This document shows, in pieces, positions 15,048 through 49,710 of a stretch of 64,000 nt of DNA. Made by a program: the position numbers and the translations under genes. The notes under the pieces were generated by a model. That model saw only the letters and a program-made list of their open reading frames with translations. It did no database searches and was not told where the DNA came from. Position 1 is the first letter of the stretch; the number at the start of each line of letters is the position of its first letter. Source of the stretch: a virus. The DNA is taken from the IMG/VR virus record IMGVR_UViG_3300025853_000033. The stretch is one strand, 5' to 3'.

Positions 15048-15126
15048 ACTACTAAATCCGTTTTTAATATTTAGTTTTGTAGGAGGGCGCTCCCATATAA
15101 GAAAGACCTTTAATATTCCCCCCAAG

Positions 15127-15210
15127 TGCGAGTAGGGAGACTTGAACTCCCACGGGATTACTCCCAACAGATTTTAAGTCTGGTGCGTCTACCGATTCCG
15201 CCATACTCGC
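15127..15210 (-). tRNA. tRNA-Leu(UAA), copy 1, CCA not encoded
   Basis: GCGAGTA/TACTCGC acceptor stem, anticodon arm CCAGA-CTTAAAA-TCTGT, long variable arm GGGA-GTAA-TCCC, GTTCAAG T-loop. Confidence 0.95.
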
Positions 15211-15214
15211 ATTT

Positions 15215-15289
15215 TGGTAGGACTGGAGGGAATTGAACCCTCTTCACACCGTTATAAGCAGTGGGCCTTAACCAATAGGCGACAGTCCC
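15215..15289 (-). tRNA. tRNA-Ile(UAU), CCA encoded
   Basis: GGGACTG/CAGTCCT acceptor stem, anticodon arm CACTG-CTTATAA-CGGTG, GGTTCAATT T-loop, 3' ACCA. Confidence 0.93.
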
Positions 15290-15292
15290 GTT

Positions 15293-15380
15293 TGGTAGGA
15301 GTAGGGAGACTTGAACTCCCACGGGCGTAATGCCCAACAGATTTTAAGTCTGGTGTGTCTACCGATTCCACCATACTCCC
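15293..15380 (-). tRNA. tRNA-Leu(UAA), copy 2, CCA encoded
   Basis: GGGAGTA/TACTCCT acceptor stem, same anticodon arm as copy 1, variable arm GGGC-ATTAC-GCCC, 3' ACCA. Confidence 0.95.
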
Positions 15381-48958: not shown

Positions 48959-48995
48959 ATTTTAGCATAAAAAAAGGAAGGGATCAACCCTTCCT
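48959..48995 (-). promoter_or_regulatory. Terminator hairpin whose loop forms a -35 box; extended -10 promoter
   Basis: AGGAAGGG-TTGAT-CCCTTCCT-TTTTTT; TTGATC, 17 bp, TAAAAT preceded by TG. Confidence 0.7.
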
Positions 48996-49073
48996 GTTTA
49001 ACAGCATGACTTCCAAATAAATTAAGAGTATAAAAATCATTGATGCTGCAGTAATAGCTGCAACTACAATCAT
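48984..49073 (-). CDS. 29-aa single-pass membrane peptide
   Basis: Hand translation MIVVAAITAASMIFILLIYLEVMLLNRKG; ATGA overlap with the upstream ORF. Confidence 0.55.
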   Translation of the reverse strand: MIVVAAITAASMIFILLIYLEVMLLNRKG

Positions 49074-49189
49074 TTTTTTGCTACCTGGCAGTGACCTGCC
49101 ATACACATTTGTGCATCTTTAAGTTTTTGATCTTTGACTTGCTTTGCCTTAATGACAGAGAGCCAATTGGAAGTTTGATTTGTTTTCAT
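49070..49189 (-). CDS. 39-aa basic peptide
   Basis: Hand translation MKTNQTSNWLSVIKAKQVKDQKLKDAQMCMAGHCQVAKK; ATGA overlap with the DUF4278-like gene. Confidence 0.6.
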   Translation of the reverse strand: MKTNQTSNWLSVIKAKQVKDQKLKDAQMCMAGHCQVAKK

Positions 49190-49329
49190 TTTGCAACCTC
49201 TACTTTTTTAGTGAACTTCATTCCACGGTAAGTTAAAGTAAATTCTTTTACTTCAGTATTATTTTGAGGTTGTTCGATGTCATAATCGACACCGCGATAT
49301 GTTGTTTTTGTGCTGTAAAGATTAAGCAT
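49186..49329 (-). CDS. DUF4278-like small protein (47 aa)
   Basis: MLNLYSTKTTYRGVDYD...FTLTYRGMKFTK with two TYRG motifs; SD AGGAG before the ATG at 49329. The track start at 49458 reads through the RNA element. Confidence 0.8.
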   Translation of the reverse strand: MLNLYSTKTTYRGVDYDIEQPQNNTEVKEFTLTYRGMKFTKKVEVAK

Positions 49330-49386
49330 TGTTTTACTCCTAAAGAAATGAGATTTAACCTTCTCTGCTAAGCAGGATCCGTTTTC

Positions 49387-49608
49387 CCGTTCCTTCAGTC
49401 GTGTGCGTCCTATGAGTCTTCTAGTTGAAAACATACAGGATCTGTATGATCCATCCATTTGAAGACTAGACTAACCTTTTCAGATACACTAAAAAGCTCA
49501 GATTCTAACAATCCCTGACTTAAAAACTCAAAATCTTCACATCGAAGATAATTCGATTGAGGGACATGTGTTGCTAAAAGCAAGGAGAGTAAAAACATAG
49601 GATGAACG
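49387..49608 (-). ncRNA. Glutamine-riboswitch-like aptamer 2 with an ORF inserted in P2
   Basis: CGTTCA-TCCTATG-[181 nt]-CATAGGA-CGCA-N10-GGAACGG; same frame as aptamer 1. Confidence 0.7.
49410..49598 (-). CDS. 62-aa hypothetical protein nested in the aptamer-2 P2 loop
   Basis: MFLLSLLLATHVPQSNYLRCEDFEF...KWMDHTDPVCF; hydrophobic N-terminus and two Cys. Confidence 0.7.
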   Translation of the reverse strand: MFLLSLLLATHVPQSNYLRCEDFEFLSQGLLESELFSVSEKVSLVFKWMDHTDPVCFQLEDS

Positions 49609-49610
49609 CT

Positions 49611-49650
49611 CCGTTCCGCGACTTACTTGCGACCCAGAAGGGTTGAACGT
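49611..49650 (-). ncRNA. Glutamine-riboswitch-like aptamer 1 (glnA / Downstream-peptide family)
   Basis: CGTTCA-ACCC(TTCT)GGGT-CGCA-AGTAAGTCGC-GGAACGG; P1 is CGTTC/GAACG; begins right at the predicted TSS. Confidence 0.78.
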
Positions 49651-49658
49651 ATAAATGC

Positions 49659-49687
49659 ATTATAACATGTACTATCTATATAGACAA
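49659..49687 (-). promoter_or_regulatory. Extended -10 sigma70 promoter driving the riboswitch leader
   Basis: TTGTCT, 17 bp, TG-T-TATAAT (49659-49664). Confidence 0.75.
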
Positions 49688-49694
49688 CCAGTTT

Positions 49695-49710
49695 TGTATA
49701 ATACTATACA
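49695..49710. promoter_or_regulatory. NtcA-type binding site TGTA-N8-TACA
   Basis: TGTA-TAATACTA-TACA within the palindrome TTGTATA-ATAC-TATACAA (49694-49711). Confidence 0.6.

Follow-up and report, generated by a model that had tools for sequence, protein, structure and literature searches.

Riboswitch aptamers are usually viewed as compact, contiguous, non-coding units lying 5' of the gene that they control. The locus described here raises the question of how two glutamine-riboswitch-like cores and an entire protein-coding gene share one RNA of 263 nt, and whether the gene takes part in the switch. The window, the whole 64,000-nt stretch analysed, resembles part of a T4-like marine cyanophage genome (relatives of the nested gene occur in 41 Synechococcus myophage records), and its nearest contig is an IMG/VR virus at 98%. 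The element and its operon lie on the minus strand throughout, with the following features in the direction of transcription.

49696-49709, minus: NtcA-type box GTA-N8-TAC, 8 nt 5' of the -35 hexamer
49659-49687, minus: sigma70 promoter
49387-49649, minus: RNA element with both cores (263 nt), at the 5' end of a small operon
49644-49649, minus: outer P1 5' strand and A6, pairing with 49388-49392
49632-49643, minus: outer P2 hairpin, 4 bp here
49624-49631, minus: outer junction CGCA and loop E 5' strand AGTA; the third base of CGCA is the linchpin partner of 49387
49619-49623, minus: P3 5' strand, common to both cores, pairing with 49397-49401 across the gene, with compensatory changes
49603-49617, minus: inner permuted core; P1' hairpin of 49612-49616 with 49604-49608, linchpin G at 49611
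49596-49602, minus: inner P2 5' arm, with the ATG at offset 4
49410-49598, minus: nested gene, 62 codons, phrog_13397, pN/pS 0.27
49408-49414, minus: inner P2 3' arm, holding the TAG stop in the window's subtype
49402-49407, minus: inner junction CGCA and 2-nt linker, without loop E; CGCA is the linchpin partner of 49611
49397-49401, minus: P3 3' strand
49387-49396, minus: loop E 3' strand GAA, a G, the outer P1 3' strand and linchpin G 49387
49186-49329, minus: DUF4278 gene (IF17-like, YRG motifs), 47 aa, with AGGAG at 49337-49341
49070-49189, minus: 39-codon ORF, with an ATGA overlap with the DUF4278 stop
48975-48995, minus: intrinsic terminator-like hairpin and T run at the end of the operon

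Architecture of the two cores

The sequence-only reading had described two units sharing the frame CGTTCA-[P2]-CGCA-N10-GGAACGG, and both are present on the minus strand, with CGTTCA at 49649 and 49608. CGCA-N10-GGAACGG occurs exactly twice in the window (49611-49631 and 49387-49407) and in none of 100 dinucleotide shuffles. The two P2 stems are likewise as described: a 4-bp hairpin at 49632-49643 and a 7-bp stem without mismatches, formed by 49596-49602 and 49408-49414, that encloses the 62-codon ORF at 49410-49598. A chance motif match, or a spurious ORF within a non-coding RNA, could account for native Rfam scores under threshold and for the absence of the ORF from some genome annotations. 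It is scarcely credible, however, given the empty shuffles, the conservation of the motif across hundreds of phage records, and the pN/pS of 0.27 and codon-position pattern of the ORF.

From 5' to 3', the element is composed of P1 strand a, the P2 hairpin, CGCA, AGTA, a 5-nt strand, GGAACGG, a 2-nt loop, CGTTCA and the gene-closing stem, followed by CGCA, the complement of the 5-nt strand, GAA and the final GGAACGG. On comparative sequence evidence, two glutamine-riboswitch cores make up the element, the P3 loop of one containing the other. The outer core forms a three-way junction (P1-P2-P3) in which every helix is paired with compensatory changes, and its P1 has pair probabilities of 0.87-0.97 in the native fold. 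Its loop E (AGUA/GAA, 49624-49627 and 49394-49396) sits at the base of P3, where every locus has GAA or AAA as the 3' strand. In the inner core, which is circularly permuted, P1 is a hairpin and entry runs via P3; no loop E was found in it, and linkers of 2 nt and 1 nt take that place.

The ligand-contact bases reported for the glutamine riboswitch (PMC6698751) are invariant in both cores across 54 distinct, full-length loci picked by the nested protein alone, and all 54 retain an intact double core. Four protein-picked loci were not parsed: three are cut by a contig end and one has a degenerate inner core. In the latter (L098:2400, minus-strand numbering), the 3' strand of the inner P1' is degenerate whereas the outer core and the 3' half are kept, which may be a loss of the inner core.

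Nested and tandem pairing across related loci

The sequence-only reading had proposed two independent aptamers in series, the second carrying the gene in its loop. In the window, the four P1 strands do not differ in sequence and neither do the two linchpins, so a tandem fold is possible there; the 5' unit alone reaches 25.9 bits in Rfam, and Weinberg's alignment handles related reads as tandem-type units. Relatives of the element do not bear this topology out: P1 position 5, the shared P3 and both linchpins covary in nested register. The main set comprises 196 distinct related elements; here and in the other sets, counts refer to related sequences, not independent events. In a 46-row alignment, the nested structure pairs 99.7% of cells, with two-sided changes at 11 pairs; none of 500 shuffles scored as high and slid controls gave 29-53%. 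The tandem structure in the same alignment has zero compensatory P1 changes and 11 mismatches in each P1.

The 5-nt P3 strands pair in all 196 elements, with changes including G-C to A-T and G-C to T-A, and in gene-bearing loci 945/945 P3 cells are paired (shuffle maximum 920). Covariation of the inner P2 arms, proposed earlier as a check, is present as well, with 756/756 cells paired in gene-bearing loci against a shuffle maximum of 709. No selection acted on the inner P2, P3 or far linchpin partners when loci were collected; the pairing count of the outer P2 is circular, because its positions 1-3 served to locate the 5' strand. The middle P1 strands swap jointly from C-G to G-C in 16/196 loci and the outermost strands change to T-A in 2, so that tandem pairing would mismatch both helices. 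The middle swap occurs in members of two gene families that are scattered over the family trees, reflecting repeated change or recombination. Two candidate breakers of the outer P1, L131 and L134, were parsing artefacts.

The linchpin is a long-range pair that joins the base following GAACG to the third base of CG(C/G)A; it is promoted by ligand binding (PMC6212724) and lines the binding pocket (PMC6698751). In the main set, the two linchpins are Watson-Crick in 195/196 and 194/196 elements. Two linchpin-variant scans, in which only the middle of the element was fixed and the far partners were free, yielded 101 distinct loci. The outer linchpin is Watson-Crick in every one (82 G-C, 19 C-G) and the inner in 88 (75 C-G, 12 G-C, 1 T-A), with 13 broken, while the tandem linchpin pairings hold in 2/101 and 4/101. 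S-CREM1 has a G-C linchpin in its outer core and a C-G linchpin in its inner core. The linchpin covariation therefore points to selection of both cores for a ligand-bound geometry, less strict in the inner core.

Every variant locus breaks tandem pairs and keeps nested pairs, and the nested fold is 7 kcal/mol more stable than the tandem fold in the loop-deleted window. The tandem arrangement also leaves the covarying P3 and loop E strands unexplained, with AGTA and GAA, the two glutamine-I loop E strands, falling in different units. A tandem riboswitch forms each aptamer from its own contiguous sequence, and covariation places the strands of this element otherwise. Two aptamers in series are thus very improbable, and the tandem fold could be a folding intermediate. 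At the level of aligned sequences, covariation shows the outer glutamine-I junction, the shared P3, the permuted inner core, the gene-closing P2 and both linchpins, supporting an aptamer that spans a whole gene with a permuted second core inside.

The assignment of both units to the glutamine-riboswitch type held up, through their structural features and through gene-less relatives over the RF01739 threshold. The native element itself scores 25.9 bits on both glutamine families with only its 5' half matched, below the Rfam thresholds of RF01739 (35 bits) and RF01704 (33 bits), and the RF01704 match has a broken pseudoknot helix; the suggested covariance-model search on the native sequence thus came out negative. 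Its loop-deleted counterpart succeeded with natural gene-less loci standing in for an artificial sequence: five loci reach 38.4-43.6 bits on RF01739, and for one gene-less locus, L058, Rfam reported no RF01739 match. Rfam's own RF01739 alignment of the gene-less relatives covers both cores in nested register. The window element minus its gene is identical at 73/81 positions to L023, one of these five gene-less loci, and the published 99-nt 'glnA' match of S-CREM1 is a gene-less form of the element. The RF01739 search missed the gene-bearing relatives; since standard Rfam scans miss such forms, phage riboswitches are undercounted, and other riboswitch families may be hidden likewise.

The enclosed gene

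By its substitution pattern, the nested gene is real and under purifying selection. Its family, phrog_13397, has a pN/pS of 0.27 with differences mostly at third codon positions, four nested-gene families range over 0.24-0.35, and the insert length is a multiple of 3 in 179/189 cases. The gene is present in 41 cultured phage records. All nested families share a hydrophobic N-terminus and exactly two cysteines; profile comparison interlinks the main inner-loop families, with a weaker link to the outer-loop family. The AlphaFold model of the window's protein is a helical hairpin (pLDDT 81), without a match in Pfam or among solved structures, with matches only to uncharacterised cyanophage proteins in a viral structure library and with all Atlas matches below 0.8. 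No paralogue of the gene was found elsewhere in the 64 kb window. The protein may be a small exported or membrane-anchored one, closed by a disulfide.

Within the main set, a gene sits in the inner P2 in 145 elements, in both loops in 44, in the outer loop only in 1 and in neither in 6, so that the outer P2 carries a second nested gene in 45/196 relatives. In Syn9, gp196 and gp197 occupy the two loops and gp198 lies downstream. Part of the element is matched in more than 400 records of cultured phages and, by these matches, the layout is widespread in marine cyanomyophages, among them Syn9, a laboratory model.

Start and stop codons had been described as paired with each other. Both do lie in the P2 arms, but a single base pair, between the A of AUG and the U of UAG, joins the codons directly; otherwise ATG pairs with CAT and TAG with CTA. 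Start-stop pairing is not a general conserved feature, the stop falling in the P2 arm in 11/180 loci. The AUG is fully paired in 40/180 loci, with the stem extended over it in 9/11 loci of the window's subtype vs 31/169 others. The conserved inner P2 measures 4 bp and ends immediately before the AUG; it pairs in every gene-bearing locus and shows changes at each of its four positions. The AUG stands at an offset of 4 nt in the stem in 161/168 loci, and it is next to the stem at a fixed offset in both P2 loops.

The 3' end of the gene is built into the fold. In 151/168 loci the nested gene crosses the 3' half of the RNA (tail e.g. DAND) and its stop codon is composed of the last P3 base and the first two loop E bases; synonymous sites are frozen in the last codons overlapping the RNA core. 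Whichever the subtype, a ribosome at the stop codon covers P3, loop E or outer P1. At the 5' end, the inner P1' loop completes a GGAG 10 nt 5' of the nested ATG. In the window's clade, GGAG in this loop accompanies 165/189 gene-bearing loci and 0/7 gene-less loci. Another clade has it in 1/55, which rejects GGAG as a universal ribosome site.

The main rival explanation takes the double aptamer to switch DUF4278 only, with the gene an unregulated passenger in a tolerant P2 loop downstream of a strong promoter, much as homing endonuclease genes occupy intron loops. The P2 loops vary freely in length and hold zero, one or two genes, the AUG is fully paired in only the 40 loci noted above, and the GGAG correlation is absent in another clade. 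Against this stand the fixed offset of the AUG by the stem in both P2 loops, the stop codon made of P3 and loop E bases in 151/168 loci, so that ribosomes must cross the core, and the intact double core in 54/54 distinct full-length protein-picked loci. On balance, a passenger gene is unlikely.

A second clade of IMG/VR loci (L274-L393) has an 8-bp P3 with two C-A mismatches, a G-C outer linchpin and a different nested family of 50-53 aa ending in DAKAD or DAKVD. Gene-less forms make up 46/101 loci in the other clade, so a nested gene is not required for the sensor to work. A GTDB scan for the element returned 15 matches, 9 chance-like and 6 real; the real ones come from contigs of MAGs or draft genomes assigned to unrelated taxa and are probably phage DNA. 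The contigs of L217, L219, L223, L224 and L228 are labelled Synechococcus, Verrucomicrobiales, Nonlabens and Euryarchaeota and are probably misbinned phage DNA.

Nitrogen context and the proposed switch

Downstream of the element, the predicted link to DUF4278 is confirmed in the window, where the gene starts 80 nt 3' of the nested-gene stop and is identified by Pfam at E 3e-7, above cut-off. A YRG/DUF4278 gene follows the element in 190/196 loci of the main set, and a YRG gene does so in 90/96 loci of a further set. The 39-codon ORF, probably in the same operon, matches phrog_545 weakly (E 0.03). The DUF4278 gene resembles the C-terminal part of phrog_545 and the 39-codon ORF, weakly, its N-terminal part; the fused protein of other phages thus appears at 49070-49329 (minus strand) as two genes in reversed order. 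Upstream, the distance from the end of the -10 hexamer to the first core is 7-9 nt in most related loci, and of 191 related loci 110 have an exact NtcA box, against 4.6 in shuffles. In the hosts, both glutamine riboswitch types turn on DUF4278 genes and NtcA controls the promoters (PMC6212724, PMC6316151).

Glutamine-I (glnA RNA, RF01739; the Synechocystis gifB leader, PMC6212724) shares with the element the three-way junction, loop E, core bases and linchpin, the site upstream of a DUF4278 gene and an NtcA-linked promoter. Unlike glutamine-I, the element is phage-borne and 263 nt long, its P3 loop is a second permuted core, its P2 encloses a whole gene and its native sequence scores under the family threshold. 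The failing native score and the inner core without loop E set it apart from plain glutamine-I membership. Glutamine-II (Downstream-peptide, RF01704; PMM1846/yfr6 of marine picocyanobacteria; PMC6698751, PMC6316151) has the same core bases, C-G linchpin polarity, a short YRG/DUF4278 peptide downstream and an NtcA promoter motif. The element, by contrast, has no pseudoknot helix to a strand 3' of the core; its linker pairs with the linker of the other core instead of a glutamine-II pseudoknot partner, and its P3 is nested and common to two cores.

Tandem glutamine riboswitches are known as 157 doublets and 4 triplets (PMC9481103) and likewise place two same-type cores in one leader, whereas the cores of the element are back to back and nested; the words 'nested' and 'interdigitated' are absent from that review. 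Glutamine riboswitches are also known in the T4-like marine phages S-CREM1 (PMC9964418) and Melnitz (PMC9004378), annotated as one ordinary aptamer, with no description of a second core or nested genes. The 2010 glnA alignment (PMC2864571, supplement) includes reads with the element, only its 5' half aligned and the gene in the flank. In NC_006884.1, a row of a supplementary alignment of PMC2864571, a conserved structured RNA of another motif lies just 5' of an element with an outer-P2 gene. We found no description of a nested permuted core or enclosed genes in the literature, where a partial earlier mention is possible.

Other structured RNAs carry ORFs in their loops, including group I introns with homing endonucleases and tmRNA with its tag, and the c-di-AMP riboswitch is pseudo-symmetric with two ligand pockets in one RNA. 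Unlike group I introns and tmRNA, the element has a metabolite-sensor-type fold, a start codon abutting a stem and a stop codon usually in the core.

Taken together, we read the element, with a probability of roughly 0.6, as the nitrogen-status module of the host (NtcA box, glutamine-sensor RNA and DUF4278 gene) copied in a cyanophage, its sensor being a nested aptamer of two cores that encloses a gene. Going by their family, both cores, or at least the outer one, probably bind L-glutamine, which would stabilise the folded state. That a core can be put together from strands far apart is indicated by a two-piece glutamine-II aptamer, which binds its ligand.

The anatomy suggests how the gene might enter the switch. 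Bound glutamine would stabilise the fold, and the inner core would then mask the site where ribosomes load onto the nested gene and lower its expression; a ribosome passing through the gene would disrupt inner P2 and P3 together with loop E and outer P1, resetting both cores. We give this part slightly better than even odds. By homology, the folded state may favour DUF4278 translation, a step we rate at a little under even. The outcome would be a reciprocal switch, with the nested gene expressed at low glutamine and DUF4278 at high glutamine. As a whole, a ribosome-gated two-site glutamine switch, in which the ligand silences the enclosed gene and its translation dismantles the pockets and sets the IF17-like output, is a tentative proposal. 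Against the reading of the element as a nitrogen-status module with a reciprocal switch stand the native score under both Rfam thresholds, the inner core without loop E, the 13/101 broken inner linchpins, the clade-limited GGAG link and the frequent gene-less forms of the other clade.

Folding models comparing the linchpin base free and blocked revealed no consistent change at the DUF4278 Shine-Dalgarno sequence, which is unpaired at 0.41 vs 0.40 on average and at 0.41 vs 0.52 in the window. A helix or anti-SD switch 3' of the linchpin G likewise gave no consistent signal. The direction of the effect on DUF4278 therefore rests on homology.

A riboswitch-derived fold might instead now shield the transcript's 5' end, act as a protein-binding site or respond to a ligand other than glutamine. 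The inner core without loop E would suit this, as would a covarying hairpin directly 5' of the core, suggestive of a stability role. Such a function is quite unlikely, however, with the PMC6698751 ligand-contact bases invariant in both cores of the 54 protein-selected loci, both linchpins covarying, and the NtcA box and DUF4278 gene indicating nitrogen control. If the glutamine switch holds, an infecting phage would pick between two proteins from one transcript by the nitrogen state of its host. The element offers a direct test case for cyanophage sensing of host glutamine and for competition between a ribosome and a ligand over one RNA.

The hairpin 5' of the first core, at 49650-49670 (minus strand) in the window, is variable in sequence, abuts the 5' side of the core and recurs in most related loci, often with the -10 hexamer in its loop. 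Its mean z is -3.7, below -2 in 90% of loci and weak in the window, and only transcripts started at an upstream or late promoter would form it. In about one-third of loci, TATAAATA-like sites are present 19-28 nt upstream. An additional small hairpin at 49340-49385 (minus strand) separates the outer core from the ribosome site of DUF4278, and about one-sixth of relatives have a similar insert before DUF4278 (spacing 55-63 nt vs 29-40). Elsewhere in the window, 15126-15380 (minus strand) encodes three tRNAs, of which two are Leu(TAA) and the third has the anticodon TAT.
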